Assembly (NCBI GenBank): GCA_947176485.1
Contig: CAMWQS010000001.1
Span: 1-55,551, forward strand
Source of the DNA: an uncultured Clostridia bacterium
Lineage (GTDB): Bacteria; Bacillota; Clostridia; Christensenellales; Borkfalkiaceae
DNA length: 55,551 nucleotides
Direction of reading: 5' to 3'
Below are positions 15,045 through 53,571 of the stretch, piece by piece. The translations under genes were made by a program, and so were the position numbers. The notes under the pieces were generated by a model. It had not been told where the DNA came from and searched no databases. It worked only from the letters and a program-made list of their open reading frames with translations. Positions within the stretch are counted from its first letter, which is position 1. Every line of letters begins with the position of its first letter.

Positions 15045-15078
15045 AAAAAATGCGTTAATTAAGGCATATATTGGGGGG
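15045..15078 (-). repeat. Interspersed motif M, copy e
   Basis: Plus strand AAAAAATGCGTTAATTAAGGCATATATTGGGGGG, 7 nt after the RND stop codon. Confidence 0.75.
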
Positions 15079-15100
15079 AATTGCTAAAAAACCATATTAA

Positions 15101-16760: not shown

Positions 16761-16831
16761 TATGTACAAGTTTTAATTTTTTAAGTGAACTGCCCCGAAA
16801 CAGCCGCGTTTTAGGGCGGTTTTTTCAATTG

Positions 16832-16875
16832 CCCCCCATATATGTGCCAAATAACGCACTTTTTGGCGCATTTTT
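16832..16875 (+). repeat. Interspersed motif M, copy f (longest copy)
   Basis: CCCCCCATATATGTGCCAAATAACGCACTTTTTGGCGCATTTTT. An internal imperfect palindrome TGTGCCAAA/TTTGGCGCA is present. Confidence 0.8.
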
Positions 16876-23300: not shown

Positions 23301-26300
23301 AGTATGAAGTAACGCTTGATTGGGAAATTGAAGAAAAGTATACCTATAACGGTACAGAGCAAGCGCCTGTGGCGAAGTTTGAAATGCCCGACGGCACGGT
23401 TTACAAGAGCACCGATACGACGGATAAATATATAGAAGTAAACGGCGGCGGCACTAACGCCGGTGATTACAAGGCGCAAGCGTTGCTTCTTAACTCCAAC
23501 TTGAAATTCAAGGCGGATACGGAAACGGAGCAGAGCTTCACGATTGAGAAGAAACAGCTTATCGTAACTTGGTATGCGGACAAAGACGATATCGGCAACG
23601 AAGACAAGGCAGTTGCACCTAATTCTTCGCCTATCGAGTACGAGTACAAGACGCGCCATCCTTACGCGCCCGTAGTCAAGCTTGAAGGCATTGAAGAAGT
23701 GGACGAGAGTGAAGACTTCTACTATATCAGCGGCGAGCAGACCGCAGTAAGTTTAAGTCCTTACGAGGCGGTATTGCATATTCTTAACGCAAACTATTGC
23801 GTTGCACAAGACGATATGAAGATATTCTTCGTAATCGTAAAGAGCGCACCCGACGAATTCGCTTGGTACGAGGACGCAGATTTTGCAACGCAAATATCCA
23901 GCCTTAAAAAGTATACCTACAACGGCGGCGTTCAACACCCCGTAGCAAAAGCTTTGGGCGACGAAGAATTCGTTTACGTTATATACCTGATTACCGGAGA
24001 CACGGAAAAGAAGGTAATTTCCACGATAGACGTGGGCAGCTACAAGATTGTGGCAACGCCCGTAAACAGCAACTTGCAGTTAACCGAAACCCAGGCAACG
24101 TTCTATTTCGACATCGTTGCAATGGAAGTAAGCGTTAACTGGAGCGCGAAGACCTTCGAATACAACGGCTTAGAGCAAGTACCTACTGCGTACTATATCG
24201 ACGCGCTTGGTCAGAAGGTAAACCTTACGGTAAACGGCGATAAGGGCGTGGACGCGAACGGAGAAGACGAAAGCTACTCTATAAGCGTAACGCTGGAGAA
24301 CGGCAACTACGTATTCATCGTTGACGGTGAAGCTACGGATACTATCGAAACTACCTACACCATAACCGCAAAGAACATAACGGTTAAGTGGGAATCGAAG
24401 ATTGACGAAGCCGGCAACTGGACTATGGTTTACAACGGTACGGTCGTTAACTCTGACGAAGAACACAAAGACTTAACGGCTACCGCAACGATGATAAACG
24501 CGGTAGAGAACGTCGGGCTTAAAATGACCGTAATGTATCAAGCGAACGAGAACGACACTCCCGTAGAGGTAAGCGAAATTCACGACGCTGGCATCTATAC
24601 GCTTTGCGTCGGGCTGGCTGAAAACTCGCCCAACTATAACGTTGTGGACGCAGAGAAGATTTTCACCATTCAAAAGAAACAGCTTACCGTGTCTGCGGTC
24701 AACAAGGAAGTAAACACCGGTGCGGTTGCACCCGCGCTTACGGCAACCTACGAAGGCTTTGTGGAAAACGAAAGCGCGGCAAGCCTTGGGCTTGACGAAA
24801 GCAAGTGGCTTACCACGAACTATAACTTAAACAGCCCTTATATAGACGAAAACGAATATACTAAGGACGGCGATATAGAAAAGCTCGTAACCCTTGCGGA
24901 CGTTACCGCAGGCGGATACAAAGGTTACTTCATAGTACTTACTGACAGCGAAGCAAGGCTTGAAGAATTAAACGGACTTCTTCATAACTACGACTGGAGC
25001 TTCAATTACGGCAGAATGATTATAATTGCCGTAAACGGCGACGTAAGCATTATCCTTACGCAGTCGTATAACGGTGAGGACCAGCTTCCCGCGGCTAAGT
25101 ATAAGTCGGGCAACAACTGGATTGACCTTAAAGTAGAAGTATACACCGACGGAACTTATACCGAAAAGGTTGAAAACCCCGAGGTTAAGAACGTAGGCGA
25201 GTACTACGTACTGTTGAAGAAGTACAGCGAGGACAACGTAACGCTTGAAGGAGCAGAAGCAGACGGCAGTGTGAAGAAAGTCTTCAACATCATTGCCCGC
25301 GAAATAGAAGTAAAGATTATAGATAAGAGCGTAGTATACGGCGAGCTCACCGAAGATAACGTGGAAGAATTGCTTGCAAGCGCATGGGAGTACGCTTCCA
25401 AAGACGCATTGCGCCGTCCCCTTGAACAAGACGAAGATGCGATAGGTATTAATCTTATAGCAGAGTTTGACTTCGTAGGCGGATACGCAACCGTAAACGC
25501 ATACACGCTGACGGGCGAGTGGAGCGAAGACGAAACCCTCCGCAAAAACTACAACGTGGTATTCGTTGGAAGCAACGGTGATAAGGGCGAACTCAAAGTA
25601 ACTGAAGCTGAAATAACCTTCACGGCAACCTTAACGGAAGGGGTTAACCAGATTCTCGAAACGGATAAAGCTAACGGCAACTACCTAATTGGACTTTATT
25701 CGAGAAAGGACGGCAAGTACGAGCATATCGATATTGCCGGCAATCAGGAAGCAGCAGTAAAAATTTACTACTCTAACATCTACGACCGTTCGGTATACGA
25801 ACTTACGGATAACCTTCCTCAAGACGAGGATGACGCGGCGTGGAGAGAAATGCCTTTGTGCAGCATGCCCGTAGCGGCAGACGGAAGCTACTACGTGAAC
25901 TTCAAAGTAGAAGTAGCTAACCACAAGACCTATTACGGACAGTGGACTGTAGAGGTAATAGCGGGTAAGGCGTACGTAAGAATTATTTTCAGCGACAAGC
26001 AATTTACCACTACTTACGGCGACGAAGTGCTCAACGGTACCGATTTGGCGGCAAAGCTTTATAACGAAGGTTACGTAAGCTGCCTTGATTTGACCGAAGA
26101 CACGTTCCGTGAGAACGTAGAAAACGGCAACCTTACCGCAAAACTGCTTGCAGACGGCGATATTACCGTAGGCAGTTACGCAATCGTGTTCGAGGGTATT
26201 GAAAAGATTAATCCCGACTGGATTATAACCTACAAGCATGACGTAAACGCAAATGACGATACGGCTACCAATATCGGAAGATACGTCGTAACGCAGCGCA

Positions 26301-26791
26301 ATATTACGTTAAGCTGGGATAAGACTTCGTTCGTTTACGACGGCGAGGCGCATATGCCTACTCCCACGATAGCTGGCTGGAAGCTTCTTACGTCCGTACA
26401 GAACGGCACGGTAACCGTTTACACCTTCGAAAACGAAATAAGCGGCGTAACCCTTAACCTTACCGTTAAAACGAACGGCGGCGACTTCACGAGCGTCGGC
26501 AGTGAAAATATCGTAATTGCCGAAATCGAAGACGTAAACTACGCGCTGGATTCGTTAAATGCAACTCGTGCGGTATCCATTATCGGTGAAAGCACCCCGG
26601 CACCCGTTGACCCTGTAGACCCCATTAACTATATCGTACAGAACGGTATACCCGAATGGGTGGCATGGCTAATAGGAGCCGTTGCGGCGATAGCGCTGGT
26701 AGCAATTATCGTTCTGGCGGTAAAAAGCAGCAAGGTTAAGTCCTTAGCTGACGATGACGGCTTCTACGACGATATCGACGAAAATTCTTAA
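17327..26791 (+). CDS. Giant cell-surface protein (3154 aa): N-terminal signal/anchor, beta-helix (Pmp-like GGxI repeats), many Ig-like, YDG-like and MBG-like repeats, C-terminal TM anchor
   Basis: Signal-like N-terminus KLSIIIILIATLCVSAAIAIFG. Repeated GGG(V/I).. and GGAIT motifs. Repeated YTYNGSAQTP..YTVAYTNNTNAGTATATITG modules. DKAYDGT/DKTYDGT modules and ITYGD..YTGF..GD modules. C-terminal hydrophobic helix WLIGAVAAIALVAIIVLAV followed by an acidic tail. SD GGGGGAGCAAGCGAGG lies upstream. Confidence 0.85.
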   Translation: MKKFKNCKLSIIIILIATLCVSAAIAIFGLSANKGTGAGNSSAEITAPEKSASSAIANGEETASGNISAPKLDAKATGVTVNSGTTASAMATAWNNAVTQSSSSNEVTFVLQANWTAPASGSSTSFGTGTGFSSGALCVPAGKKIVLDLAGHTLNRGLSSKSAVAGGGVISVYDSTLTITDSVGGGKITGGNTTGDGGGITISTSNYSVGSNVYLNGGAITDNKAKDGGGVYSGGYTNFCMYGGEISYNTATSKGGGIRWGDPTGAEVNGGKITHNTAGAQGGGIYSSYFINSGINNAEISYNTSSGLGSGVYSEYPATYNNAKIINNTGGVGIYGGNNGPITLTNTEVINNTGTSSDTVAGVYSSAASSTDTVVIRIAGYTKIYDNKKSGAQSNLYLPTGKTIGVVGALAIESNKARIGVTHQTDVCTLTSGFGLSGNSNATTYFFSDKGKTISTSNGEVCTTATAVTLASLTWQYRIGSDGAWSTVTGGNFSKEYSGKQFYVRALNSANSTVTTYGGTSIKTPGDYLVYVSTGAAQYINSSFTFTVTKKTLDVVWSGATLTYNGTMQYPTPGLSGLVSGDDVKLNVDTTSAGINAGSGYKVTVTGASGADMGNYKLGSETYSKTYSIEKASITSATVTFAVTNYTYNGSAQTPTPTVKLGTKTLTPGTDYTVAYTNNTNAGTATATITGAGNYKDTATAKGSFTIDPKTITGSFLTLSGTSATYTGSAITSITATVKDGTTTLNTTSHYSVAYTNNTNVGSATITVTGKGNYTGTASKDFTITAKALTNSNATVTLGTTTYTYDGSAKTPSVSSVVTGSLTVPSSSYAIAYSNNVNASTSATVTLTLSGNYSGTLTKTFTINKAAIGTATVAFAVTHYTYTGSAISPAATVTLSSKTLAPTTDYTIAYTGNTNAGTATATVTGTGNYSGTATGSFTIDPKTITGSFLTLSGTTATYTGSAITSITATVKDGTTTLNTTNHYTVAYTNNTNVGSATITVTGKGNYTGSVSKDFTITPLALTSANATVNLGTTSYTYDGSLKTPTVSSVVTGSLTVPSSSYAIAYSNNLNASTSATVTITLSGNYSGTLTKTFTIDKAPITNATVSFGVTNYTYTGAAISPVAMVTISSKNLAQGTDYMIAYTNNTNAGTATVTVTGTGNYSGTKTGSFTIDKRQIFVTGISVADKAYDGTKTATVDMSKVKILGIVDADKTKLGLAFTAGTEFDGASVGFHSVAITGVTLTGDAAGNYVLNSDELTGYATIHPATITISGVVANDKTYDGTTSATFNKDGATITGAVSGEVSSLLQNLIINGYFDSKNAGDGVAVSVSGYVLGGDYAGNYVVDLENSATSLTANIAKAQVEVTLGKAEYTITYGNALKITYTQNSPVKSEGIGLTLEFYDEHGNTKLDGVPTDAGKYLVKVAVDADDVNVGNYTIKTTGEGIISQATVTIEKATLTVTVEDLEIEYGDEKPADDDYTLIFNGWLNGDKAAFEDGDITFIKDIVISTDYAKGDDADAYDITLSEGELKNYELTFVDGVLWVMPKKVTVIIDDKSVVYGEDEAELTSNGTEDMQITLEREEGANVGKYVISGDWDNDNYDVTFINGLYEITKAKLTVTAKPKSITYGDVAANDGVTYTGFADGEDENVLGGELGYRYTYTQYGNIYEDGTNNAIAYYIIPYGYTSSNYEIEYVNGLLTVNKKAATVTLTNAASDITSVPADREVAAQKMKYAVNGTVNGDDLIIILSIAENGENGAYTVPWCAVGVYKVTGTAGNSNYNVTFVYEGGLTYGTYTVTQGTLIVTANTLIIGYGDVVAFPADLDEAVTAEGLPAGSTLKELVQSGVISGTLTIVPYGDEKYDEYATMGSAYQLGGDIFDASGNRISYIIIPTGLSSASYNIIFKPGKLMIEPKSIVVTLDNKSSVYGEALKELTASAEGLVNYDPEEKSVVEFLGITGLVKADGSDAGSYAITATGSDNKNYRVTFAYGVYTIEQYEVTLDWEIEEKYTYNGTEQAPVAKFEMPDGTVYKSTDTTDKYIEVNGGGTNAGDYKAQALLLNSNLKFKADTETEQSFTIEKKQLIVTWYADKDDIGNEDKAVAPNSSPIEYEYKTRHPYAPVVKLEGIEEVDESEDFYYISGEQTAVSLSPYEAVLHILNANYCVAQDDMKIFFVIVKSAPDEFAWYEDADFATQISSLKKYTYNGGVQHPVAKALGDEEFVYVIYLITGDTEKKVISTIDVGSYKIVATPVNSNLQLTETQATFYFDIVAMEVSVNWSAKTFEYNGLEQVPTAYYIDALGQKVNLTVNGDKGVDANGEDESYSISVTLENGNYVFIVDGEATDTIETTYTITAKNITVKWESKIDEAGNWTMVYNGTVVNSDEEHKDLTATATMINAVENVGLKMTVMYQANENDTPVEVSEIHDAGIYTLCVGLAENSPNYNVVDAEKIFTIQKKQLTVSAVNKEVNTGAVAPALTATYEGFVENESAASLGLDESKWLTTNYNLNSPYIDENEYTKDGDIEKLVTLADVTAGGYKGYFIVLTDSEARLEELNGLLHNYDWSFNYGRMIIIAVNGDVSIILTQSYNGEDQLPAAKYKSGNNWIDLKVEVYTDGTYTEKVENPEVKNVGEYYVLLKKYSEDNVTLEGAEADGSVKKVFNIIAREIEVKIIDKSVVYGELTEDNVEELLASAWEYASKDALRRPLEQDEDAIGINLIAEFDFVGGYATVNAYTLTGEWSEDETLRKNYNVVFVGSNGDKGELKVTEAEITFTATLTEGVNQILETDKANGNYLIGLYSRKDGKYEHIDIAGNQEAAVKIYYSNIYDRSVYELTDNLPQDEDDAAWREMPLCSMPVAADGSYYVNFKVEVANHKTYYGQWTVEVIAGKAYVRIIFSDKQFTTTYGDEVLNGTDLAAKLYNEGYVSCLDLTEDTFRENVENGNLTAKLLADGDITVGSYAIVFEGIEKINPDWIITYKHDVNANDDTATNIGRYVVTQRNITLSWDKTSFVYDGEAHMPTPTIAGWKLLTSVQNGTVTVYTFENEISGVTLNLTVKTNGGDFTSVGSENIVIAEIEDVNYALDSLNATRAVSIIGESTPAPVDPVDPINYIVQNGIPEWVAWLIGAVAAIALVAIIVLAVKSSKVKSLADDDGFYDDIDENS
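19217..20850 (+). repeat. Tandem 702-nt (234-aa, three Ig-like modules) cassette, about 2.3 copies, inside the giant CDS
   Basis: Equivalent positions recur at 19217, 19919 and about 20616. Long stretches are near-identical, for example CACTATCGACCCTAAGAC.ATTACCGGTTCGTTCTT at 19440 and 20137. Confidence 0.85.
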
Positions 26792-27024: not shown

Positions 27025-27513
27025 ATGGCACAAAACGTTTTTGAGGGCACTGAGAAGCAGATGTCCGAACTTATGGCTTGTATCGACGAGAACCGTGGCG
27101 AGCCGGGCGCGCTTATGCCCGTTTTGCACGCCGCACAGGATATCTACGGATATCTTCCCGCCGAAGTGCAGACGGTTATCGCAGAGGAGCTGAACGTTCC
27201 CCTTGCGGAGGTGTACGGCGTTGCAACCTTTTATTCGCAGTTTTCTTTAAACCCCAAGGGCAAGCACAAAATAAGCATTTGCCTTGGCACGGCTTGCTAC
27301 GTTAAAGGCTCGGATAAAATTTTGGAAGCGGTCGAGCACGAGCTAAGAATTAAGTGCGGTGAATGCACGCCCGACAAAAAGTTCTCAATTGAAAGCTGCC
27401 GTTGCGTGGGCGCGTGCGGGCTTGCACCCGTAATGATTATCGACGGCGAGGTTTACGGCAAGCTGTCCCCCGACGACGTAAAGGGCATACTCGACAAGTA
27501 CGTTAAGGATTGA
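27025..27513 (+). CDS. hydC: NuoE-like [2Fe-2S] subunit of bifurcating [FeFe]-hydrogenase
   Basis: CLGTACYVKG...CRCVGACGLAPV cysteine pattern. Start set at the SD-supported MAQNVF. Confidence 0.85.
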   Translation: MAQNVFEGTEKQMSELMACIDENRGEPGALMPVLHAAQDIYGYLPAEVQTVIAEELNVPLAEVYGVATFYSQFSLNPKGKHKISICLGTACYVKGSDKILEAVEHELRIKCGECTPDKKFSIESCRCVGACGLAPVMIIDGEVYGKLSPDDVKGILDKYVKD

Positions 27514-27521
27514 GGTGTAAA

Positions 27522-29414
27522 ATGACGGTAGAAGAATTAAGACGGATTTCCGCTGAAAAGGCGGCGCTTATAAACGTAAGAAGAATAGTACGCGAACAAG
27601 CCGAAAAGCTTGCGCCCCAAACGGGTTACAGAAAGCAGGTCTTGGTCTGCGGCGGTACGGGTTGTACCTCGTCGCACTCTCACCAGGTTATCGAGCAGCT
27701 TGAAAAGTCCTTTAAAGAGCTCGGCATTGACGACGTGCTAATCGTCAAAACGGGCTGCTTCGGTCTTTGTGCTTTGGGCCCTATAATGATAGTTTATCCC
27801 GAGGGTGCGTTCTATTCGCAGATGACCCCCGAGCACGCAAAGACGGTTGCCGAAAAGCACCTTGTAAAGGGCGGGCAAATCGTAAAAGAGCTTTTATACG
27901 CCGAAACCGTTCAACCCGACGGCGGCGTTATTCCCTTCTCGGAAATACCTTTCTACAAGCACCAGATGCGCATAGCACTCCGCAACTGCGGCGTAATCGC
28001 GGCGGAAAGTATTGAAGAAGCTATCGGCGCGGGCGACTATTCCGCGCTTGCGCGTGCCTTGTTTGAAATGACCCCCGACGGCGTAATTGATGAAATTTTA
28101 AAGTCGGGCCTTCGCGGTAGAGGCGGCGCGGGCTTCCCTACGGGTCGCAAATGGCTGTTCACGAAGCAAGCCGCCGGCGATAAAAAATACGTCTGCTGTA
28201 ACGCGGACGAGGGCGACCCCGGCGCGTTCATGGACAGGTCGGTCTTGGAAGGCGACCCCCATTGCGTGCTTGAAGCAATGACCATCGCGGGCTACGCGAT
28301 AGGCGCACAGGAAGGCTACATATACGTCCGTGCAGAGTATCCCATCGCGGTTGAAAGGCTTAACATAGCAATCAAGCAAGCAAGAGAATACGGCTTGCTC
28401 GGCAACAATATTTTGGGTAGCGGCTTCAACTTCGATATTCATATCCGTCTCGGCGCAGGCGCGTTCGTGTGCGGAGAAGAAACCGCGCTTATCGCAAGTA
28501 TCGAAGGGCACAGGGGCGAACCCCGTCCTAAGCCGCCCTTCCCCGCAAATAGCGGTATTTTCCAAAAACCCACGGTTATCAACAACGTAGAAACCTGGGC
28601 AAACGTCGCACCCATTATCAACAACGGCTACGCGTGGTTCTCTTCCATCGGCACCGAACGCAGCAAGGGCACAAAGGTCTTTGCGGTCGGCGGTAAAATC
28701 AACAACGTCGGGCTCGTGGAAGTACCTATGGGCACGCCCCTTAAAACTATCGTCTACGACATCGGCGGCGGCATCCCCCACGGCAAAAAATTCAAAGCCG
28801 CGCAGACGGGCGGACCTTCGGGCGGCTGTATCCCCGCAAAGCATATCGATATCGGTATGGACTTCGACAACCTCACTGCCATCGGCTCGATGATGGGCTC
28901 GGGCGGTCTTATCGTCATGGACGAGGACACCTGTATGGTGGACATCGCCAAGTTCTATCTCGAATTCACCGCGGACGAAAGCTGCGGTAAGTGTACGCCT
29001 TGCCGTATAGGCACCAAACGCCTTTTGGAAATTCTCGATAAAATTTGCAGCGGTAAGGGCGAGCCCGAGGACCTTGACAAAATCAAGGAAGTGGCGGAGC
29101 ATATGAAGTCCTCGTCGCTGTGCGCGTTGGGGCAGTCTGCGCCCAACCCCATACTTTCGGCAATGGAGCATTTCGGCGACGAGTACGAGGCGCATATCTA
29201 CGACAAGAAGTGCCCCGCAGGCGTATGCAAATCGCTTTTAAACTACCACATAGAACCCGACAAGTGCCGCGGCTGTACGCTGTGTGCAAGGAACTGTCCC
29301 GCAAACGCAATTTCGGGCGCAGTCAAGAGCGCGCACGAAATAGACACGACGAAGTGCATTAAGTGCGGTCAGTGTATTGCGCATTGCCGCTTCGGCGCAA
29401 TCGTCAAAAAATAA
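27522..29414 (+). CDS. hydB: NuoF-like NAD(H)/FMN-binding subunit of bifurcating [FeFe]-hydrogenase
   Basis: GRGGAGFPTGRKW, the SCGKCTPCR cluster motif and two C-terminal CxxCxxCxxxC ferredoxin motifs. Confidence 0.9.
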   Translation: MTVEELRRISAEKAALINVRRIVREQAEKLAPQTGYRKQVLVCGGTGCTSSHSHQVIEQLEKSFKELGIDDVLIVKTGCFGLCALGPIMIVYPEGAFYSQMTPEHAKTVAEKHLVKGGQIVKELLYAETVQPDGGVIPFSEIPFYKHQMRIALRNCGVIAAESIEEAIGAGDYSALARALFEMTPDGVIDEILKSGLRGRGGAGFPTGRKWLFTKQAAGDKKYVCCNADEGDPGAFMDRSVLEGDPHCVLEAMTIAGYAIGAQEGYIYVRAEYPIAVERLNIAIKQAREYGLLGNNILGSGFNFDIHIRLGAGAFVCGEETALIASIEGHRGEPRPKPPFPANSGIFQKPTVINNVETWANVAPIINNGYAWFSSIGTERSKGTKVFAVGGKINNVGLVEVPMGTPLKTIVYDIGGGIPHGKKFKAAQTGGPSGGCIPAKHIDIGMDFDNLTAIGSMMGSGGLIVMDEDTCMVDIAKFYLEFTADESCGKCTPCRIGTKRLLEILDKICSGKGEPEDLDKIKEVAEHMKSSSLCALGQSAPNPILSAMEHFGDEYEAHIYDKKCPAGVCKSLLNYHIEPDKCRGCTLCARNCPANAISGAVKSAHEIDTTKCIKCGQCIAHCRFGAIVKK

Positions 29415-29533
29415 AACGCATATAAGCGTCGCAATACTTCGTCAAGCTTGCGTTTTGCCTTGGTCATTTACTATTTGTAAACTCCCTGCGGCAAATCCGC
29501 GCTTTCCTTGTCTTGCTCGCTTCTCTGTGTTTT
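29414..29533 (+). repeat. Long-hairpin element R, copy 1 (hydB-hydA spacer)
   Basis: Shares conserved blocks with 35292-35412: AAAACGCATATAAGCG.CGCAATAC ... TCATTTAC-N5-GTAAACTC ... CCTTGTCTTGCT.GCTTCTCTG...TTTT. It starts on the hydB TAA. Confidence 0.75.
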
Positions 29534-29573
29534 AGGTCGTATATATCAGTTAGTTATTTATATAGAGGACAAT

Positions 29574-31289
29574 ATGGTAAATTTAAAAATTAACGGCATA
29601 CCCGTGAGTGTGCCCGAAGGCTCAACGATTTTACAAGCGGCTAAGCTTGCCAACGTAAGAATTCCCACACTTTGCTATTTAAAGGACGTTCAGTGCGTGG
29701 GCGCGTGCCGTCTTTGCCTCGTAGAGGCAACGGGCGCAAGGGGCTTGGTTGCGGCGTGCGTTTATCCCGTAACCGAGGGAATGGAAGTGCGTACCAACAC
29801 CCCCCGCGTAAGAAAATCGAGAAAGACTACTATCGAGCTTATTCTTTCCACGCATAAGAAAAAATGCCTTTCTTGCGTGCGTTCTATGAACTGCGAGCTT
29901 CAGAAGCTTGCCTTAGAGTACAACGCCGAAGAGGACAGATTTGGCACCGACCACGACTTGAAGCCCATCGACGATTTGTCGGCGTCGGTCGTGCGCGACA
30001 ACTCGAAGTGCATTATGTGTACCCGTTGCGTTGCTGCGTGCGAGCATCAGACGATAGGCGCAATAGGACCTAAAAACCGCGGCTACGCCAAAGTGATAGG
30101 TTCGCCGTACGACGTTTCGCTTGCCTTCACGCCCTGCGTAAACTGCGGACAGTGCGTAGTTGCGTGCCCAGTAGGTGCGCTATACGAAAAGTCGGCGGTG
30201 GCGGACGTATGGGGCGCAATAGTTGACCCCGAAAAAGAGGTGGTATTCTTCACCGCGCCTTCCGTCCGTGCAACCCTCGGCGAAGCGTTCGGCTTGCCCG
30301 CAGGCACCAACGTCGAAGGCAAAATGGTTACCGCAATCAAACAGCTCGGCAACGTTAAGTGCTTCAATATGGATATCACTGCAGACCTCACCATTATGGA
30401 GGAGGCAACCGAGCTTTTAAACAGATTACAGACGGGCAAACCCACGCCCATGTTCACAAGCTGCTGCCCCGGCTGGGTTAAGTTCGCGGAGCATTACTAT
30501 CCAGAATTCCTTCCCAACATATCCACTTGCAAATCCCCGCAGGAAATGTTCTCGGCAGTGCTTAAAACCTATTACTGTGAAAAGCACGGCATAGACCCCA
30601 AAAACCTTTACGTCGTTTCGGTTATCCCCTGCACGGCGAAGAAGTTCGAAATTTCGCGTGACGAGTTAGGGCACTATACGGATGCGGCGCTCACCACCCG
30701 TGAGCTTGCCAAAATGATAAAGGAAGCGGGCATCGATTTTGCTAATCTTAACGATAGCGAGTTCGACACACCGTTCGGTAAGGCGTCGGGCGCGGGCGCA
30801 ATCTTCGGCGCAACGGGCGGCGTAATGGAGGCGGCTTTAAGAACCGCCGCAATGAAGCTCGGCGGCAAGGGCGCACCTATCGAGTTTAAGGAAGTTCGCG
30901 GCACGCAAGGCGTTAAAGAAGCGGAGTACACCGTTGGCAAAACCACCGTCAAGGTGGCGGTTGCAAGTGGTCTCGGAAACGCAAGAAAAGTTTTGGAAGC
31001 TATAAAGAGCGGTGAAAAGGACTACACCTTCGTTGAAATCATGGCTTGCCCCGGCGGGTGCATAAACGGCGGCGGTCAGCCCTACGTCCACGACGAGGTC
31101 CGCAACAATATCGACTTAAAGGCAGTCCGCGCTAAGGCTTTGTACGACTATGACAAGGAAAGTAAAGTCCGTTGCTCGCACGATACCCCCGCGGTAGAAG
31201 TACTGTACAAGGAATACTTCGGCGAGCCTAATTCCCACAAGTCGCACGAGCTGTTACATACCACTTACGCAAAGAGAGATAAGTATTAA
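29574..31289 (+). CDS. hydA: [FeFe]-hydrogenase catalytic subunit
   Basis: N-terminal 2Fe-2S and 4Fe-4S cysteine motifs, and H-cluster motifs TSCCPGW and MACPGGCINGGGQP. Start set at MVNLKING after GAGGA. Confidence 0.95.
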   Translation: MVNLKINGIPVSVPEGSTILQAAKLANVRIPTLCYLKDVQCVGACRLCLVEATGARGLVAACVYPVTEGMEVRTNTPRVRKSRKTTIELILSTHKKKCLSCVRSMNCELQKLALEYNAEEDRFGTDHDLKPIDDLSASVVRDNSKCIMCTRCVAACEHQTIGAIGPKNRGYAKVIGSPYDVSLAFTPCVNCGQCVVACPVGALYEKSAVADVWGAIVDPEKEVVFFTAPSVRATLGEAFGLPAGTNVEGKMVTAIKQLGNVKCFNMDITADLTIMEEATELLNRLQTGKPTPMFTSCCPGWVKFAEHYYPEFLPNISTCKSPQEMFSAVLKTYYCEKHGIDPKNLYVVSVIPCTAKKFEISRDELGHYTDAALTTRELAKMIKEAGIDFANLNDSEFDTPFGKASGAGAIFGATGGVMEAALRTAAMKLGGKGAPIEFKEVRGTQGVKEAEYTVGKTTVKVAVASGLGNARKVLEAIKSGEKDYTFVEIMACPGGCINGGGQPYVHDEVRNNIDLKAVRAKALYDYDKESKVRCSHDTPAVEVLYKEYFGEPNSHKSHELLHTTYAKRDKY

Positions 31290-31300
31290 TAAAATGGATA

Positions 31301-31334
31301 AAGCCCGACGGCTGTGCGCCGTCGGGCTTTTTTA
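31301..31334 (+). terminator. Terminator after hydA
   Basis: AAGCCCGACGG..CCGTCGGGCTT followed by TTTTT. Confidence 0.85.
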
Positions 31335-31408
31335 AAATAAATTATTTTTATCTATTGAATATTGAAAAACGCTGTGTTAAAATAGTTATGTTAAAAGGGG
31401 GAACAGCT

Positions 31409-31828
31409 ATGAAAGACTGTAATTGCGGATATTGCGTGGGCGGCGAGCCGCTTGCTAAATTCGGTATAAAGATATGTGATTTATCCGTAAGTCAGCTTAT
31501 TCTGTTTAAAGAGCAATCCAAGCGCGGCAGAGTTATCGTCGCGTACAAAGACCACGTAAGCGAAATCGTGAATATCTCGGACGAGGAGCGCAACGCCTTC
31601 TTCGCGGACGTGAACCGCGCCGCAAAGGCTATCCACAAGGTATTCAAGCCCGATAAACTAAACTACGGCGCATACGGCGACACGGGTTGCCACCTTCATA
31701 TGCACCTTTGCCCCAAGTACGCGGGCGGGGACGAGTGGGGCGGCACCTTCACAATGAACCCGCAAAAAGTTTATCTTACCGATGACGAATATCAGAAGAT
31801 GATTGAAGATATTAAAGCGGCATTATAA
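31409..31828 (+). CDS. HIT-family (histidine triad) protein
   Basis: HLHMHL histidine-triad motif. AAAGGGGGA SD before the ATG at 31409. Confidence 0.75.
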   Translation: MKDCNCGYCVGGEPLAKFGIKICDLSVSQLILFKEQSKRGRVIVAYKDHVSEIVNISDEERNAFFADVNRAAKAIHKVFKPDKLNYGAYGDTGCHLHMHLCPKYAGGDEWGGTFTMNPQKVYLTDDEYQKMIEDIKAAL

Positions 31829-31843
31829 TAAGGGAGAATTTTT

Positions 31844-33070
31844 ATGGCACATAACGTAATTGCCGAAGCTAAAAGATGTTTAAACTGCAAAAGGCCCTTG
31901 TGTAGGCAAGGCTGCCCCGTGAATACGCCCATTCCCGATATGATTTCCACTTTTTTAAGCAGCGACATTAAAAAGGCGGGCAAGATGGTGTTCGATAACA
32001 ACCCGCTGTCCGTGGTCTGCTCGATAGTATGCAACCACGCCAACCAGTGCCAAGGGCACTGCGTTCGCGGCATTAAGGGCGAGCCCGTCGAAATAAGCAC
32101 TATCGAAAACTTCGTTTCGGGGCACTACCTTGACAGTCTCGAGCTTGAAAAGGCAGAGCCCAACGGCATAAAGGTTGCCGTCGTCGGCGCGGGTCCCGCT
32201 GGCATAACCATTTCAATTAAAATGGCGCAGCTCGGCTACGACGTAACCATATTCGAAAGCAAGACGGAAATAGGCGGCGTATTAAGATACGGCATTCCCG
32301 AGTTCCGCCTTCCCAAAGCCATAGTGGACAAGTACGAGGGGCTTTTACGCAAGCTCGGCGTTAAAATAAAATACAACGTAACCATCGGCAAAGCTTTCGG
32401 CATAGAGGAGCTTTTCCGCGACGGCTTCAAGGCAATTTCCATAGGCACGGGCGTAACCTGGCCCATTGCCTTGAATATCAAGGGTGAATCGCTCGGGCAC
32501 GTTCACTACGGCGTACACTTCCTGGAGCGTCCCGACGTTTACAAGCTCGGTCAGAAGATGGTCATAATCGGCGCGGGCAACGTCGCAATGGACGTGGCGC
32601 GCACGGCTTTAAGAAAGGGCGTAAGGGACGTTACCATTACGGTCAGAAGCGACAAGGTTTCGGCAAGCGACGAAGAAAGAGAGTACGCGGAAATCGAGGG
32701 TGCGCAGTTCGTATTTAACAAGCAGCCCGTTGAAATTACGGATAACGGCGTTCTGTTCGCCGACACCGTTTGCGACGAGGAAGGGCGCATTTTAAGCGTA
32801 TCCGATACGACGGAGCTGATGGAGGCGGACAGCGTTATGATATGTATTTCACAACGCCCGTCAAACCTTATCCTCACCCAGACGGAAGGGCTCGAAACCA
32901 ACGAGCGCGGGCTTGCAAAAATCAACCCAGACGGTTCGACAACCCGTAAAGGGCTGTTTGCCGCGGGCGACGTAGTGCGCGGCGCAAAGACTGTCGTTGA
33001 GGCGGTTGATACGGCAAAGCACGTTGCCGCCGCAATGGACGCATACTTGAAATCATTACCAAAAGAATAA
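31844..33070 (+). CDS. GltD/NfnB-like NAD(P)H-dependent FAD oxidoreductase with N-terminal Fe-S cysteines
   Basis: CLNCKRPLCRQGCP and CNHANQCQGHC cysteine clusters, VAVVGAGPAG and IIGAGNVAMD dinucleotide folds, GIPEFRLPK motif. Confidence 0.8.
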   Translation: MAHNVIAEAKRCLNCKRPLCRQGCPVNTPIPDMISTFLSSDIKKAGKMVFDNNPLSVVCSIVCNHANQCQGHCVRGIKGEPVEISTIENFVSGHYLDSLELEKAEPNGIKVAVVGAGPAGITISIKMAQLGYDVTIFESKTEIGGVLRYGIPEFRLPKAIVDKYEGLLRKLGVKIKYNVTIGKAFGIEELFRDGFKAISIGTGVTWPIALNIKGESLGHVHYGVHFLERPDVYKLGQKMVIIGAGNVAMDVARTALRKGVRDVTITVRSDKVSASDEEREYAEIEGAQFVFNKQPVEITDNGVLFADTVCDEEGRILSVSDTTELMEADSVMICISQRPSNLILTQTEGLETNERGLAKINPDGSTTRKGLFAAGDVVRGAKTVVEAVDTAKHVAAAMDAYLKSLPKE

Positions 33071-33084
33071 AAAGAATATAGAAA

Positions 33085-33120
33085 AAGCCGCCGCGGGCAC
33101 CTTCCCGCGGCGGCTTTAGT
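33085..33120. terminator. Bidirectional terminator between the GltD-like gene and kdgK
   Basis: 13-bp stem AAGCCGCCGCGGG/CCCGCGGCGGCTT. Confidence 0.8.
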
Positions 33121-33181
33121 TTGATTTGTGATTAGTTCGTTTTTCGCAAAAGTTATTAAGATACGAGATTAAACGGAACGT

Positions 33182-34216
33182 TTACCTTTGTATTTCGTAT
33201 TCTTGGTTCATAAGCTTTTTAATTGACGATTCGTCGTCGGTTATGTTGAAGTCGCCGTGCATAGTGTGTTTAATTACGGACGACGCAACCGCAAAGTTCA
33301 CTATCTCGTCGGGGTTCATTCCGCGCATAATCGCGTAAATCATACCGCTTGCAAACGCGTCGCCGCCGCCGACCCTATCCAAAATATTAAAGCGGTAGGT
33401 CAGGCTTTCGTAGGTTTCTCCCTCGTACCACATAAAGGCTTTAAGGCTGTTTTCACTGCCCGAATGTACGTATCTCACGTGCCTGCCTATCGCCTTAAAG
33501 TTGTACCGCTTGTGCAGCTCGCGGAAAATTCTGTCCTGCTCCTTATACGAAGGATTCATTGACAGTCCGTCTTTCATATCCTTGCCGTTCTCGTCGCGCA
33601 GGTTTATAGGCTCTATGCCGAACAACACGTCAACGTAAGGCAAATATTCGGTTATACAGTCGCGTGCCTCTTGCCAGCCCCACAACGCCGAGCGGAAGTT
33701 GCAGTCAAAGCTCACGGTCATTCCAAGCTCTTTTGCCGCTTTAAGCGCGTATAAAACGAGCTTGCGGCAGTTTTCCGAAAGCGCGGGTGTTATGCCCGAG
33801 GTGTGCAGCCAAGTAAAGCCTTTCAGCTTTTCTTTGAAATCTATTTGTGAGTAGTCGTACTTTGAGAACGCGCTGTCCTTTCTGTCGTAAGTAACCTTTG
33901 ACGAACGCACGCCGAAGCCCTCTTCCAAAAAGTAAATGCCCATTCTGCCCTCGTTCGAGTAGATGCAGGGCGAGCAGTGCACGTCGTTAGAGCGAAGGTA
34001 CCTTATCGCCGCCTTGCCTATCGAGCTTTCGGGCACTACCGTAAAGTACGAGGAGTCAACGCCAAGGTTTGAAAGCGCCGCCGCAACGTTCGCTTCCGCG
34101 CCGCCGTAGGTTACCTTGAACTCGTCTGTGGTGCGGATTTTTTCATAGTTAGGGGGCGAAAGCCTAAGTAAAAGCTCGCCCATAGTGATAAATTTAACGC
34201 CTGTTATATTTGCCAT
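33182..34216 (-). CDS. kdgK: PfkB-family sugar kinase, 2-dehydro-3-deoxygluconokinase-like
   Basis: MGELLLRLSPP N-terminus and GGGDAFASG PfkB signature. Start set at MANITGV with an AGAGGGA SD. Confidence 0.8.
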   Translation of the reverse strand: MANITGVKFITMGELLLRLSPPNYEKIRTTDEFKVTYGGAEANVAAALSNLGVDSSYFTVVPESSIGKAAIRYLRSNDVHCSPCIYSNEGRMGIYFLEEGFGVRSSKVTYDRKDSAFSKYDYSQIDFKEKLKGFTWLHTSGITPALSENCRKLVLYALKAAKELGMTVSFDCNFRSALWGWQEARDCITEYLPYVDVLFGIEPINLRDENGKDMKDGLSMNPSYKEQDRIFRELHKRYNFKAIGRHVRYVHSGSENSLKAFMWYEGETYESLTYRFNILDRVGGGDAFASGMIYAIMRGMNPDEIVNFAVASSVIKHTMHGDFNITDDESSIKKLMNQEYEIQR

Positions 34217-34345
34217 AATTTTCCCTCTTAAGTTTATTATATCACCCGTTTTTTTATTTGTACATACCAAAATTAAAAATTATCTTGCTTGAAGTACCGT
34301 TTTTTGATATAATTGTCTAAAACGGCAAACTTTTCGGGGGGACGA

Positions 34346-35293
34346 ATGAAAATAGCAATAAACACGAGCGCGATTTCCTATAACGGCGATATGGACTTTG
34401 CAGAGTTTGAACGCCTTGGCGAGATAAAGTACTTCGGTGAAATTCCGAGGGAAGAGCTTTTTGCCCTCTGCGCCGACTGTAACGCGCTAATCGTCAACAA
34501 GGTTGAAGTTGACGAAGCCTTGCTTGCGGCTTGCCCCGATTTAAAGTACGTGGGCACCTTCGCCACGGGCTATAACGTCGTGGATATCGAGGCGTGCCGT
34601 CGTCGCGGCGTAACCGTTTGCAACGCACCCGACTATTCCACACACTCTGTAAGCCAGCACGTTTTCGCCTTGCTTTTGAATTTGTACGGCAAAATTTCCG
34701 AATACACTTCGTCGGTTGCCGCGGGCGACTGGATAAAAAGCAAAACCTTCTGCTATTACCCGTATCCAACTTACGAGTTATCTGGCAAAACCTTCGGCGT
34801 TTTCGGCTACGGCAACATAGGCAAATCGGTTGCAAAAATAGCCGAAGCCTTCGGCGCAACCGTGGTTATCTGCACCCGCACCCCGCCCAAGGACTGCCCC
34901 TACAAACAGGTCAGCTTTGAAGAAATGCTTAAAATTTGCGATATAATTTCTCTGCACTGTCCGCTGACGGATAAAACGGCAAAGCTTATCGATAAAAAGG
35001 CTTTAAGCCTTATGAAGAAAACGTCAGTATTAATCAACACCGCACGCGGCGGACTCGTTGACGAGGTTGCGCTTGCCGCCGCCTTGAACGAGGGGCGCAT
35101 TGCGGGCGCGTGCCTCGACACTGTAGCCGTCGAGCCTATGCGTGCCGACAATCCGCTGTACGGCGCGAAGAATTGCCTTATAACGCCCCATATAGGTTGG
35201 TTGCCTAAGGAAACCCGCCAAAGACTTTTGGAGATTGTGGCGGGCAATTTAAAAGCTTATATGGAAGGCAAACCCATCAACGTAGTTAGTTAA
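34346..35293 (+). CDS. D-isomer-specific 2-hydroxyacid dehydrogenase (glycerate/hydroxypyruvate reductase-like)
   Basis: GVFGYGNIGKSVA NAD fold, NTARGGLVDE and TPHIGW motifs. GGGGGGA SD before the ATG at 34346. Confidence 0.85.
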   Translation: MKIAINTSAISYNGDMDFAEFERLGEIKYFGEIPREELFALCADCNALIVNKVEVDEALLAACPDLKYVGTFATGYNVVDIEACRRRGVTVCNAPDYSTHSVSQHVFALLLNLYGKISEYTSSVAAGDWIKSKTFCYYPYPTYELSGKTFGVFGYGNIGKSVAKIAEAFGATVVICTRTPPKDCPYKQVSFEEMLKICDIISLHCPLTDKTAKLIDKKALSLMKKTSVLINTARGGLVDEVALAAALNEGRIAGACLDTVAVEPMRADNPLYGAKNCLITPHIGWLPKETRQRLLEIVAGNLKAYMEGKPINVVS

Positions 35294-35412
35294 AACGCAT
35301 ATAAGCGGCGCAATACGGCGTTGCACTCCGTGCCGCCTTGCTCATTTACGCAAAGTAAACTCGCGGCGGTCGGTACTCGTGCGCCTTGTCTTGCTTGCTT
35401 CTCTGCATTTTT
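35292..35412 (+). repeat. Long-hairpin element R, copy 2
   Basis: Same conserved blocks and fold as 29414-29533. It starts on the TAA of the dehydrogenase gene and ends in TTTTT. Confidence 0.75.
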
Positions 35413-35428
35413 GACATACATTATAACA

Positions 35429-35462
35429 AAAGCCCCGCGGCGCACGCCGCGGGGCTTAATTA
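35429..35462. terminator. Bidirectional terminator between the dehydrogenase and the lipoprotein gene
   Basis: AAGCCCCGCGGCG-CA-CGCCGCGGGGCTT. Confidence 0.85.
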
Positions 35463-35470
35463 ATTTTATT

Positions 35471-36589
35471 TTAATCGTTGTATAACGTGCTTGTAATCGT
35501 ATCGAGCGAATAATTCAAAGTACCGAGGCTGAAAGGAATGGGCACCGACATTTTAACCATCGTCGTTCTGCCCGTGTTATTCCTTGCGTTATCGATTGCC
35601 GCAAACCAATACTGTTGCGAAACGCCATTCATATCGTTAGCCGAATTAAGCTTGGCGGTTACGCAAACGGTGTGCAAGGACTTGCCTTCGCCTTTGACGT
35701 ATAAACCGACTGCTTCGTTGCCTAAAATTTCCTCGTAAGCCGTTCTGTCTTTTTCGCTTAAAGCTGTGGAGGAACCTGTAAAGGTATAGTCCTGCAGCTT
35801 TCCGGAGGGTGAATAAACGCTGATAACCTGCGATAAGCCTTCGCTAAGCTGCATAGCCCTGACCGCGATATTCAAGCCGTTTACGTCTACCAAGGAGTTG
35901 TCCGTATCGCCAAGTCCGTCGGTTACGAACTCTTTTGCACCGTCGCCCGTTATAACGGTTTTAGCCGCCGTGCCCTCGTAGTTGTAAGAGGTTTCAACCG
36001 TCTGGTTGACCGTAACGTAAGCTTCTTCCAAGCTGCTTACTTGATACTCCGCAGGGGAAGCCCCGTTCACGATTTGCTTCGAATACAGCGGGCGCAAATG
36101 CTCGTTTACGTCCGTGAAATAGCTTACCGTCTTTATGCTGTTATGGAAGGGTTCGGAGGTTTTGTCGCCAACCGTGAAGGTAACGGAAGGAACGTCAAGC
36201 TCCGTTTCATAGCAGTATACGGTGATAGCCTCGTCGGGATAGGACGCCTTGAATTCTTCGTTAATCAAATCTTTTTTGAAGGTCGTCCCGTAGAACTTCG
36301 TCGTATAGGTACCGTCCGAATAGTCAACGGAATAGGTGGTGTTGCCCGCCGTTTCCTTGTCGTGTTTTACGGTATAGACGATTTCTTCCGCGCCCTTAAA
36401 CGCGTCGTTACCTTCGGTAAAGGTAGGCTGAATATATTTGAAATTCGTATCCGCATACCAGTTTGAGCTGAACGCCGCCTCGTTTGCTTTTCCGGTGTTG
36501 CCGCACCCGTTACAGCCGGTACAACCCGCAAAAATAACCGCACAGCCCGCCGCCAAGGTAAGCGCGGCAACGCCAAAACGTTTCTTCAT
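35471..36589 (-). CDS. Hypothetical lipoprotein
   Basis: Signal peptide with lipobox-like LAAGC/FAGC. No recognisable catalytic motif. Confidence 0.7.
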   Translation of the reverse strand: MKKRFGVAALTLAAGCAVIFAGCTGCNGCGNTGKANEAAFSSNWYADTNFKYIQPTFTEGNDAFKGAEEIVYTVKHDKETAGNTTYSVDYSDGTYTTKFYGTTFKKDLINEEFKASYPDEAITVYCYETELDVPSVTFTVGDKTSEPFHNSIKTVSYFTDVNEHLRPLYSKQIVNGASPAEYQVSSLEEAYVTVNQTVETSYNYEGTAAKTVITGDGAKEFVTDGLGDTDNSLVDVNGLNIAVRAMQLSEGLSQVISVYSPSGKLQDYTFTGSSTALSEKDRTAYEEILGNEAVGLYVKGEGKSLHTVCVTAKLNSANDMNGVSQQYWFAAIDNARNNTGRTTMVKMSVPIPFSLGTLNYSLDTITSTLYND

Positions 36590-43188: not shown

Positions 43189-43845
43189 TACGTTGTATTT
43201 TGCCATAAGCTTTAAAAGCGCGTTGAAGTTGTCGTTCAAAATGTCGGCTTCGGCAGGGTTCAAAGAGCCTTTTATTTTAAGCACAGCCAAAGTGTTTTTC
43301 AGCTTTTCAAGCTCAAGCCGGTCGGTTTTTGCAAGGTTCTTAGTCAAAAGCTTGTCGGTAACAGCAACCGCGTGTTCAAGCCTAACGCCGTTTTTTGCGG
43401 CGGGTACTTGCGCTTGGGCTTGCATATCCGTACGCGCTGCGCGAATCGGCTGAACGGGGATAGGGGTTTCGGTAACGGCAGCTTGCGTAACCTTTGCCTT
43501 GCGGACCGCGTAGTTTTTTGTAAAACCGCAAAGCGCACCGTAGAGAACGTACCCGACTACCCAAAACGCAACGGTAGCGGTAATCGACTGTGCAAGACTG
43601 CACTTAAGCATAAACGCGGCAAGGGTTACCGCGGCGTACGCATTCGTCAGGCACAAAAAGGGTTTTTTGGATGCCGCTTTAAACTTTTTCGAAGCAAGCG
43701 TCGCCACGAGCGCAATTAAGAAAATTGCAAGATAAGAGCCCCATATAAAGTATATTAAAGTGTCGAAGGGGAGGCTGTCAAACCAACTGTAAAAGCCTTT
43801 AAAAAAATTAACCATCAGTTTAATTATAGCCTTAAATTTTTGCAA
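43186..43845 (-). CDS. Hypothetical membrane protein
   Basis: Three or four hydrophobic segments at the N-terminus and a charged helical C-terminus. TTG start at 43845; the ATG at 43815 is an alternative. Confidence 0.55.
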   Translation of the reverse strand: MQKFKAIIKLMVNFFKGFYSWFDSLPFDTLIYFIWGSYLAIFLIALVATLASKKFKAASKKPFLCLTNAYAAVTLAAFMLKCSLAQSITATVAFWVVGYVLYGALCGFTKNYAVRKAKVTQAAVTETPIPVQPIRAARTDMQAQAQVPAAKNGVRLEHAVAVTDKLLTKNLAKTDRLELEKLKNTLAVLKIKGSLNPAEADILNDNFNALLKLMAKYNV

Positions 43846-43847
43846 AG

Positions 43848-43880
43848 GGTGCCGAATATGCTCGAAATAACGCTGTTTTT
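43848..43880 (+). repeat. Interspersed motif M, copy j (intergenic)
   Basis: GGTGCCGAATATGCTCGAAATAACGCTGTTTTT. The C-run is degraded. Confidence 0.55.
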
Positions 43881-43896
43881 GTCAACGGATATTATC

Positions 43897-47240: not shown

Positions 47241-47247
47241 TTTGACG

Positions 47248-47284
47248 ACCGTCCGCCGCATTTAGTGGCGGGCGGTGAATTTTA
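47248..47284 (+). terminator. Probable terminator after niaR
   Basis: CCGTCCGCCGC-ATTTAGT-GGCGGGCGG hairpin with a weak T tract. Confidence 0.5.
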
Positions 47285-47678
47285 CGGGCAAAAAAACCTA
47301 TACTTTATTTTAAAAGTAAAAAAATTTTTTTATTTTACTGAAAAAAACGCAACTTGAATTGTTTTATATAATGAAGGCGCTAACCCGCTGCCAATCCCAA
47401 CAAAGCACAATTTTATGGATAAATTTCGGCTTATGCTGCGTTAAGGACGCTTGCCGTACTGGTTTGTACGCCTACGCGACCTTGCCTTGCCTAATCTCAA
47501 AATTAATCTCATAAAATCGCAAAGCGTCTAAGCGATGGGGTTTGGAATGGGTTTTGTGCGGGGCACCCGCAGTTGTACCGTAGTACATCAAGGGGGCACC
47601 GTGCAAAAGACAACCAAAGAACGCGCTTAGATGTGTTCTATTGGGGTTGACAGCGGGTAATCGATATCGGAGAACCAC

Positions 47679-53549: not shown

Positions 53550-53571
53550 ATGCATTTAAAATTTTAGCGAA

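Follow-up and report, generated by a model that had tools for sequence, protein, structure and literature searches.

R, a probable miniature insertion element abutting stop codons in uncultured gut Clostridia

What is a hairpin of about 120 nucleotides (nt) doing directly on the stop codons of two genes? The question is raised by a 55,551-nt stretch of DNA from an uncultured Clostridia bacterium of the Borkfalkiaceae (GenBank assembly GCA_947176485.1, contig CAMWQS010000001.1), which at its full length we call the window, and in which an earlier note, made from the letters alone, had marked two copies of a repeat named R and seen in it either a structured RNA or a palindromic mobile or REP-like element. 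Comparison with other genomes leads us to regard R as probably a non-autonomous miniature insertion element of a dispersed, recently active family in a clade of uncultured gut Clostridia; the multi-copy distribution, the empty sites, the TAA(A) direct repeats and the covariation of the hairpin, all described below, bear out the mobile or REP-like side of that earlier description. The two copies and the features that belong to them are as follows (ORF, open reading frame).

29412–29534, plus strand: R copy 1, an interrupted hairpin of 123 nt with 35 model pairs, between hydB and hydA; 134 bits with the covariance model
29412–29414, plus strand: TAA stop codon of hydB (ORF 27510–29414), with which R copy 1 begins and which is also its left TAA target copy
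29535–29562, plus strand: 3' tail of copy 1, AT-rich and included in the 147-nt insertion
29563–29565, plus strand: putative right target copy of copy 1, an imperfect TAG and the weakest junction among those examined
35291–35412, plus strand: R copy 2, an interrupted hairpin of 122 nt in the 3' untranslated region, upstream of the gene's own terminator; 124.5 bits with the covariance model
35291–35293, plus strand: TAA stop codon of the 2-hydroxyacid dehydrogenase gene (ORF 34313–35293), the left TAA target copy of copy 2
35413–35423, plus strand: 3' tail of copy 2, GACATACATTA
35424–35426, plus strand: right TAA target copy of copy 2, from the comparison of filled and empty site
35430–35457, no strand assigned: ancestral GC-rich bidirectional terminator from the terminator scan, context outside R, kept in the R-less loci L046, L048 and L049

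Copy 1 is flanked by the nuoF-like hydB (27510–29414) and the [FeFe]-hydrogenase gene hydA, whose ribosome-binding site AGAGGA (29564–29569) and ATG (29574) follow the TAG. Copy 2 lies 3' of a D-2-hydroxyacid dehydrogenase gene (34313–35293) and 5' of the terminator at 35430–35457, which this gene has in common with the convergent gene 35471–36589. As the earlier note had claimed, both copies start on the TAA of a co-oriented plus-strand gene, and the three conserved blocks are found where it had placed them: the copies align over about 123 nt as three near-identical blocks with divergent arms between them. The 24-nt 5' block is found in the window two times and no more, as is the 22-nt 3' block (0.00 expected from shuffles for either); the central block alone is not significant (two occurrences, 0.71 expected). 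The terminal T-run, of four T in copy 1 and five in copy 2, forms the base of the hairpin by pairing with the 5' A-run. The ends of R have the general pattern TAA + AACGCATATAAGCG ... tail + TAA, and the ORF list of the window holds no independent ORF within the R insertions.

Occupied and empty sites

Empty sites were sought through contigs carrying homologues of the flanking proteins (L numbers denote loci outside the window), and the relatives in which the sites of the two window copies are empty are 91–79% identical in DNA. In six of them (L040–L045; HydB 99–89%, DNA 91–81% identical) the spacer between hydB and hydA measures 12 nt, as in AAG TAA AAGGAGGGAGTT ATG, against 159 nt in the window, which gives an insertion of 147 nt. 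Since the hairpin makes up only about 120 nt of this difference, the AT-rich tail must be part of the insertion. For copy 2, the distance from the stop codon of the dehydrogenase gene to the A-tract of the terminator is 3 nt in L046 versus 134 nt in the window, an insertion of about 131 nt, and is likewise short in L048 and L049; as the terminator is conserved in these R-less relatives, it predates R, and R is not the terminator. Further comparisons are offered by a hexuronate-type operon with the order kduI, ABC ATPase gene, mannitol-dehydrogenase-like gene and a gene for 491–502 amino acids (aa), which carries R at all three junctions in L004 and at two in L010 and L029. The kduI/ATPase junction is filled in these three loci and empty in L069, L070 and L072, and the junction between the ABC ATPase and mannitol-dehydrogenase-like genes is filled in L004 and empty in L010 and L029. 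Four junctions are thereby known in both states, and at every junction compared the inserted unit is the hairpin together with an AT-rich tail of 8–28 nt, 131–147 bp in total, the tails of unrelated copies being alike (GACATACATTA; GACATACTTAGT in L004; GACAGCTTA). The earlier note had thus caught the extent of the hairpin and missed the part of the unit that lies past the T-run. Additional filled and empty pairs from an all-against-all BLAST of the flanks were too diverged (about 70%) to set boundaries.

The junction between the ABC ATPase and mannitol-dehydrogenase-like genes is a hot spot for insertion right after the stop codon: R occupies it in L004 (5633–5756), unrelated repeat-like inserts are present in L069 (1490–1699) and L072 (1711–1901), and it is also empty in L070.

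The alignments of filled with empty sites place the target as follows, with the repeats in square brackets.

kduI junction, L010 versus L069: filled AAAA[TAAA]CGGCGC...CTAT[TAAA]TATGAAATT; empty AAAATAAATATGAAATT
kduI junction, L004 versus L070: filled AAAG[TAAAA]CGCATA...TTTAAAA[TAAAA]ATCTATACC; empty AAAATAAAAACTATACC (host TAAAAACTATACC)
window copy 2 versus L046: filled AGT[TAA]AACGC...ACATTA[TAA]CAAAAGCCCC; empty ACATAAAATAAAAGCCCC
window copy 1 versus L040: filled TAA...TAG (imperfect); empty AAGTAAAAGGAGGGAGTTATG

At three junctions, direct repeats of TAAA, TAAAA and TAA match single copies in the empty sites; that of L046 has one stop codon, TAAAA, directly before the A-tract of the terminator and next to AAAAGCCCC. 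Among 30 copies, the left junction is TAA in 93%, and 77% have a TAA no more than 32 nt past the hairpin, the first ones being concentrated at 8–18 nt. The simplest reading of the flanking TAA(A) is a putative target-site duplication, for which the evidence is moderate, given that the targets are A-rich and that some of the comparisons are between species. Where the target is the stop codon of a gene, its left copy still serves as the stop, which best explains why R appears to start on TAA. Only 2–7 free bases separate the stop codon from the ribosome-binding site or terminator in the documented empty sites, and this suggests a real target preference and not random insertion followed by selection. 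Two other duplications were considered and set aside: a plain TA duplication as in IS630-type elements agrees with some junctions, leaves the tail unplaced and is a poorer fit than TAA(A), and a longer one of about 8 nt, prompted by rabbit-gut copies with GCTCCCGC on both sides, is not seen in other lineages.

A dispersed family of hairpins

When 185,579 species-representative genomes were scanned for exact matches to 21 specified bases of the 5' block, 39 loci came up, from about 13 species-level metagenome-assembled genomes (MAGs) of uncultured gut Clostridia. These are labelled Clostridia bacterium, uncultured Christensenella sp. or Candidatus Scatosoma (Clostridia incertae sedis in the NCBI taxonomy) and come from rabbit, chicken, mouse and other hosts. 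A scan with the 3' block added 19 loci from metagenome contigs. The covariance model, made from 32 full copies of R, finds 59 copies in 49 sources at E <= 1e-15. Several loci hold R twice or three times, in each case on one strand, with up to three copies per operon, and rabbit-gut MAGs contain at least 10 copies each, differing by a few bases. Against Rfam 15, only two tRNAs reach the gathering score within the window, and even at E <= 10 nothing overlaps the R hairpins, generic terminator-type matches falling on 35430–35457 only.

Both copies in the window are predicted to fold into one long interrupted hairpin, at -37.4 kcal/mol (z = -5.4) for copy 1 and -40.9 kcal/mol (z = -1.5) for copy 2, in agreement with the single imperfect hairpin first proposed for them. 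The outer helix TAAAACGCAKAKAAGCG is an imperfect inverted repeat. Both sides have changed in 5 of the 35 pairs between the two copies, including the arms TTTGCC/GGCAAA and GCCGCC/GGCGGT, while the apical stem TTTAC/GTAAA is conserved and its loops differ, so that arms pairing with different sequences around a kept central stem, as described in the earlier note, are indeed present. In a MAFFT alignment of the 32 copies, 95.0% of pair cells are standard pairs (at most 52% with slid partners), and double changes occur at 14 of the 35 pairs, in 130 cells against 47.7 in shuffles, with none of 500 shuffles as high. The 59-copy alignment, which was fitted to the covariance model and hence leans towards it, has 95.4% of cells paired and double changes at 27 of the 35 pairs (354 cells, 109 in shuffles). 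These two points, homologues elsewhere and covariation, were among those on which the earlier note had wished its proposal to be judged, and the covariance-model search and the covariation test provide both. Even the outermost helix changes sequence and stays paired in the wider family (AAAACGCA/TGCGTTTT, AAAACTTCA/TGAAGTTTT, ACGGCTTCA/TGAACCCGT). These alignments show that the hairpin has been kept in evolution as a structure of a single strand. Whereas its stems covary, unpaired motifs and internal loops (the 3x3 loop ATA/CTC among them) are retained, and this speaks against a new fold-back duplication as the origin of each subfamily.

The two strands are not equivalent. G-U or U-G combinations occupy 56 cells in 20 pairs, A-C or C-A combinations 13 cells in 7 pairs, and by this excess the sense strand is, in evolutionary terms, the better-folding one; strand-biased C-to-T mutation could be a contributor. 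Orientation and distance to genes were taken from a crude ORF map, on which about 85% of copies run in the direction of the gene upstream, the pattern '++' of flanking genes is counted 24 times and '--' twice, and in roughly half of the co-oriented copies the stop codon is no more than 10 nt from the start of R. Downstream, the genes are of many kinds, with none in the case of copy 2, whose neighbour is convergent. In 37 of 46 loci the strand that carries R has a positive GC skew (G-rich, presumably leading), and co-orientation with genes is thus not separable here from co-orientation with replication, the exceptions being too few.

The orthologous copies of L010 and L029 belong to different inner-arm subfamilies and share the same truncated ends, a combination suggestive of exchange between dispersed copies and not of stepwise evolution in place. 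In both (L010 5472–5593, L029 5183–5305) the outer helix is lost symmetrically on the two arms, and a long hairpin still forms between the end of the upstream gene (GATTTAAAATAA) and sequence past R (TTTTAAATC).

Other copies are embedded in larger arrangements. In the rabbit-gut MAGs Lapin-024 bin72 and bin73, R always sits inside a longer unit, GCTCCCGC-R-TAGACTTCGTAATTRCA-GCTCCCGCAAT (L003, L006, L008, L009, L018, L019, L021, L022, L024, L025, L027, L032, L033, L036 and L039), and clusters with other repeat families, for example GTCATTCCGAGC...GGAATC hairpins and GGGGAGCTGTC...GACTGAGGGG. The copies of L005, L034 and L035 share one nested insertion (TCTCACACGGCGTAAGGGCAACGCCGTG...). About three tandem units of a repeat of about 63 nt (GGAACGGCAGTTCKTTCTATTGACAAGAAACTAAGAAATTTRGTTAAGCGGAACGCTTACGTTTGATT) break the 5' part of R in L028 (5070–5300), just upstream of adk, and an orphan 3' end of R lies downstream of that gene at about 5995–6020. 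A diverged variant with the outer helix TATGCGTCGCATTAC/GTACTGCTCGCATCTCC is present on metagenome contigs L057 (9480–9720), L059, L062, L066, L067 and L068, as part of composite arrays that also contain small GAACCCG...CGGGTT hairpins and further copies of the 3' block CCTTGTCTTGCTTGCTTCTCTG; these further copies indicate that the 3' block of R also exists as an independent module.

How R might move and act

We suggest the following scenario. R inserts at TAA(A), with the target then present on both sides, and in a gene-dense genome the TAA sites at which this is tolerated are mostly stop codons that closely precede a terminator or the ribosome-binding site of the next gene. Once there, it would be co-transcribed with the host operon and fold in the mRNA right after the upstream stop codon. 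The sense bias would then reflect survival: in the sense orientation the unstructured tail would separate the hairpin from the downstream ribosome-binding site and keep the latter clear, and in antisense the base of the hairpin would abut it. The RNA hairpin would be at most a modest modulator, acting as a barrier to 3'-exonucleases, as an RNase III-type processing site or as a weak attenuator, by analogy with REP, ERIC and Correia elements. A role for R as carrier of an outward promoter was considered and dropped, as a sigma-70 scan of the 3' arm and tail gave no consensus promoter, with weak TTGCTT...TATAAT-like strings in some copies.

Several observations weigh against this scenario and call for caution. 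A Pfam scan of the proteins of the window gave no transposase or autonomous element with matching ends, and in the fetched loci a search for 5' and 3' blocks 0.3–4 kb apart gave nothing but nested insertions and orphan ends. Because the tail breaks the symmetry, the inserted unit does not end in mutual inverted repeats, and such asymmetric ends are atypical for DDE-type miniature inverted-repeat transposable elements (MITEs), which makes an HUH-type or site-specific recombinase mechanism a live rival. A palindromic double-stranded TAA/TTA target does not in itself predict a strong orientation bias. The right target copy of copy 1 is TAG and not TAA, and its insertion is about 15 nt longer than the others; some filled and empty sites are compared between genomes only 80–90% identical; and since a chance TAA is not rare in an AT-rich tail, the duplication rests mainly on the four filled/empty comparisons. 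The scenario leaves unaccounted for the extra conserved flanks of the rabbit-gut copies (GCTCCCGC ... TTCGTAATTRCAGCTCCCGCAAT), and co-transcription, like any RNA effect, is something we infer.

Could R have spread because it is useful to its host? We think it unlikely that R is chiefly an RNA module with a cis-acting function, which punctuates operons and was spread by selection for that function and not by selfish transposition; in such a module the hairpin after the stop codon would set the relative expression of cistrons through an exonuclease block, an RNase III site or partial termination. Such a module would suit the strong preference for the sense orientation and the retention of internal loops and unpaired motifs among covarying stems, as well as the much greater tolerance of the sense strand for G-U than for A-C, although strand-biased C-to-T mutation could be the source of that excess. 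It would also suit the persistence of copies at the same two junctions of the hexuronate-type operon in three species, and the long hairpins still formed with flanking sequence by copies without an outer helix; however, orthologous copies differ by swaps of whole subfamilies and not by stepwise compensatory changes. Close relatives differ in whether R is present at essential operon junctions, and nothing there compensates for the difference; the genes next to R are unrelated in function, and near-identical copies within one genome, together with nested insertions, resemble proliferation.

The asymmetry of the unit raises a second alternative, to which we give a low probability: a single-strand DNA hairpin element, comparable to REPINs or integron attC sites, moved by an HUH enzyme (of the IS200/IS605 or RAYT type) or by a site-specific recombinase acting on the folded strand, with TAA(A) as recombination core or 5' target motif and a bias that follows the replication strand. 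What is conserved in R is a folded strand with conserved bulges and not two matching terminal repeats, the unit consists of hairpin plus tail, and its outermost helix changes sequence and stays paired in the wider family. The closest empty sites already have TAAAA exactly at the insertion point, the strand of R is G-rich in 37 of 46 loci, and the layout resembles that of attC (right after the stop codon, co-oriented, AAC...GTT at the helix ends). Against such a mechanism, no Y1/HUH transposase, RAYT or integron integrase is found in the window or beside any copy, the insertion is always R alone and never a gene cassette, and there is one long hairpin without separate left-end and right-end hairpins; the clean TAAA and TAAAA on both sides at the kduI junction resemble a duplication, which HUH transposition does not make. 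A further proposal goes beyond this, that R, and perhaps also the short motif M described below, is moved by an undescribed strand-specific mechanism that recognises the folded single strand and homes to TAA(A) stop codons, R being co-opted as a punctuation hairpin that uncouples adjacent cistrons. We hold this to be improbable; if true, R would be a stop-codon-homing structured element and not an ordinary decaying MITE.

R is unlikely to be a strong terminator, because it lies inside operons (between hydB and hydA, two genes for which co-expression is expected, and between consecutive genes elsewhere) and has an A-U-rich stem base with a 3x3 loop. That it is simply a lineage-specific intrinsic terminator common to several genes, as a long stable hairpin with four or five U directly after stop codons might suggest, is therefore highly improbable, all the more as the full hairpin is not called in the terminator scan, copy 2 has behind it the conserved GC-rich terminator that belongs to the gene itself, and relatives have the same junctions without R.

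If R is the miniature insertion element that we favour, a recently active repeat family, absent from Rfam, exists in a poorly studied group of uncultured gut Clostridia. Its filled and empty sites, by which closely related genomes differ, would make it a convenient strain-level marker, and its copies can confuse the prediction of operons, terminators and small RNAs in these MAGs. Precise insertion between tightly coupled genes such as those of the HydABC hydrogenase would be a natural experiment on the tolerance of intercistronic structure, and the hairpin-plus-tail asymmetry, the TAA(A) target and the sense bias would be handles for finding the mobilising enzyme.

Other features of the window and known elements

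Across the whole window, the covariance model gives the two strong copies and two weak matches only. One of the latter corresponds to the degenerate third copy that the earlier note had suspected at about 47370–47510.

47413–47514, plus strand: possible eroded R relic; 14.9 bits, window-wide E about 0.09; hairpin z = -1.8; central blocks recognisable, outer helix lost

The hairpin shape and the central blocks speak for the suspected copy and the score is marginal, so that an eroded relic is plausible here and not established. It lies in an unusually long intergenic region (47241–47678, about 440 nt) upstream of a gene for an ECF-type sigma factor, which holds, besides the degenerate R-like hairpin, a terminator, a stretch rich in A/T and a possibly structured G-rich segment (47530–47610), and which has no Rfam match at E <= 0.1. 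The other weak match (6638–6736, minus strand, 18 bits) was rejected, being antisense within the conserved nrdD coding region and having no single-hairpin fold.

Motif M, CCCCCATATATGYGCCAAATAACGCnnTTTTT, is about 38 nt long and present in at least 10 copies in both orientations (14 loose matches, 5.3 expected), at 3672–3707, 8076–8111, 8638–8680, 13362–13404, 15046–15081, 16826–16868, 38023–38058, 40484–40526, 43842–43884 and 45752–45794, as well as in L014, L023 and L048. It occupies very short gene junctions (nrdD-M-nrdG-M-dut), right after TAA, with some copies apparently inside ORFs. A copy in L048 has the very place that R has in the window, after the stop codon of the 2-hydroxyacid dehydrogenase gene and before its terminator, and is flanked by AAATAA...AAATAA. 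From these sequences M, too, looks like a tiny insertion using TAA sites, and as an insertion at the same kind of site it could share machinery with R. The idea that R was built from an inverted pair of M-like termini found no further support, the resemblance between the 5' end of R and M being limited to about 8 bases (TATATGCG plus the T-run).

Elsewhere in the window, a giant plus-strand ORF (17327–26791, 3154 aa) contains internal tandem repeats of about 700 nt with 70–83% identity (19199–20823); its homologues in L040–L045 have 2206–2858 aa, with weak or faint MBG_3 or DUF6273 matches and a length that varies between strains. A phage-type integrase gene (53572–54855, minus strand; Phage_int_SAM_3 and Phage_int_M domains) adjoins a tRNA gene (53426–53497), with an M-like sequence between the two (53534–53558); the arrangement is possibly the edge of an integrated element.

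With respect to elements known from other bacteria, R is an undescribed small mobile repeat of a familiar kind. It shares with MITEs a size under about 300 bp, the lack of coding capacity, many dispersed copies, presence/absence polymorphism and a putative target duplication; as to terminal repeats, the outer helix is an imperfect inverted repeat, but the unit runs 8–28 nt past its 3' side. The Correia elements of Neisseria are MITEs of about 100–150 bp, multi-copy, intergenic and co-transcribed, with a TA target duplication and presence/absence polymorphism between strains, and their terminal repeats fold as a long mRNA hairpin that is a substrate of RNase III. R resembles them in size, copy number, intergenic position, long hairpin, short AT target duplication and polymorphism, whereas its sequence is unrelated and its phylum another, and Correia elements have symmetric 26-bp ends without a 3' tail and a TA target; we know of no report of a strong sense-orientation bias or of stop-codon abutment in them. 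The bcr1 element of the Bacillus cereus group is a transcribed Firmicute repeat of about 155 bp with a duplicated TTTAT flank and a predicted conserved RNA structure, which lies near gene ends and encodes no transposase. An AT-rich duplicated flank, conserved structure and closeness to gene ends are common to bcr1 and R; sequence, fold and target motif differ, R being a single long hairpin exactly on stop codons inside operons.

REP units and BIMEs are hairpin-forming repeats found after genes inside operons, the malE-malF REP stabilising upstream mRNA, and REPINs are RAYT-mobilised hairpins of about 100 nt with maintained pairing; REP units measure 20–40 nt and have a conserved 5' tetranucleotide, a linked RAYT gene and no target duplication. 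R is like them in its placement after genes inside operons and in its maintained pairing, and unlike them in its TAA(A) flank repeat and asymmetric tail. An assignment to REP or REPIN was rejected, R being one hairpin of about 120 nt without short palindromic subunits and the scanned proteins of the window containing no Y1 transposase domain. ERIC/IRU in enterobacteria and RUP/BOX in pneumococci are imperfect palindromes of about 107–127 bp in transcribed intergenic regions, with orientation-dependent mRNA effects reported for ERIC and TA-type targets for RUP; they occur in both orientations and show no systematic overlap with stop codons. Size and imperfect palindrome are what R has in common with them; it differs in sequence, host clade, orientation bias and stop-codon overlap.

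Integron attC sites, imperfect palindromes of 57–141 nt, lie right after the stop codon of co-oriented genes and act as folded single strands, with only the ends conserved in sequence and the middle variable but paired. The likeness of R lies in the imperfect palindrome directly after the stop codon of a co-oriented gene. An attC identity was rejected: there is no integrase or cassette array, the flanks are hydABC, a 2-hydroxyacid dehydrogenase gene and a sugar-acid operon, and empty sites lack R alone. Neither of two RNA classes fits. An intrinsic terminator is at odds with the A-U-rich base and 3x3 loop that the scan does not call, the intra-operon position and the separate terminator after copy 2, and a riboswitch or gene-specific leader with the diverse or absent downstream genes and the orthologous junctions of close relatives without R. 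Among all these elements, the abutment on stop codons, the asymmetric build of hairpin plus tail and the strong sense bias are the distinctive traits of R.

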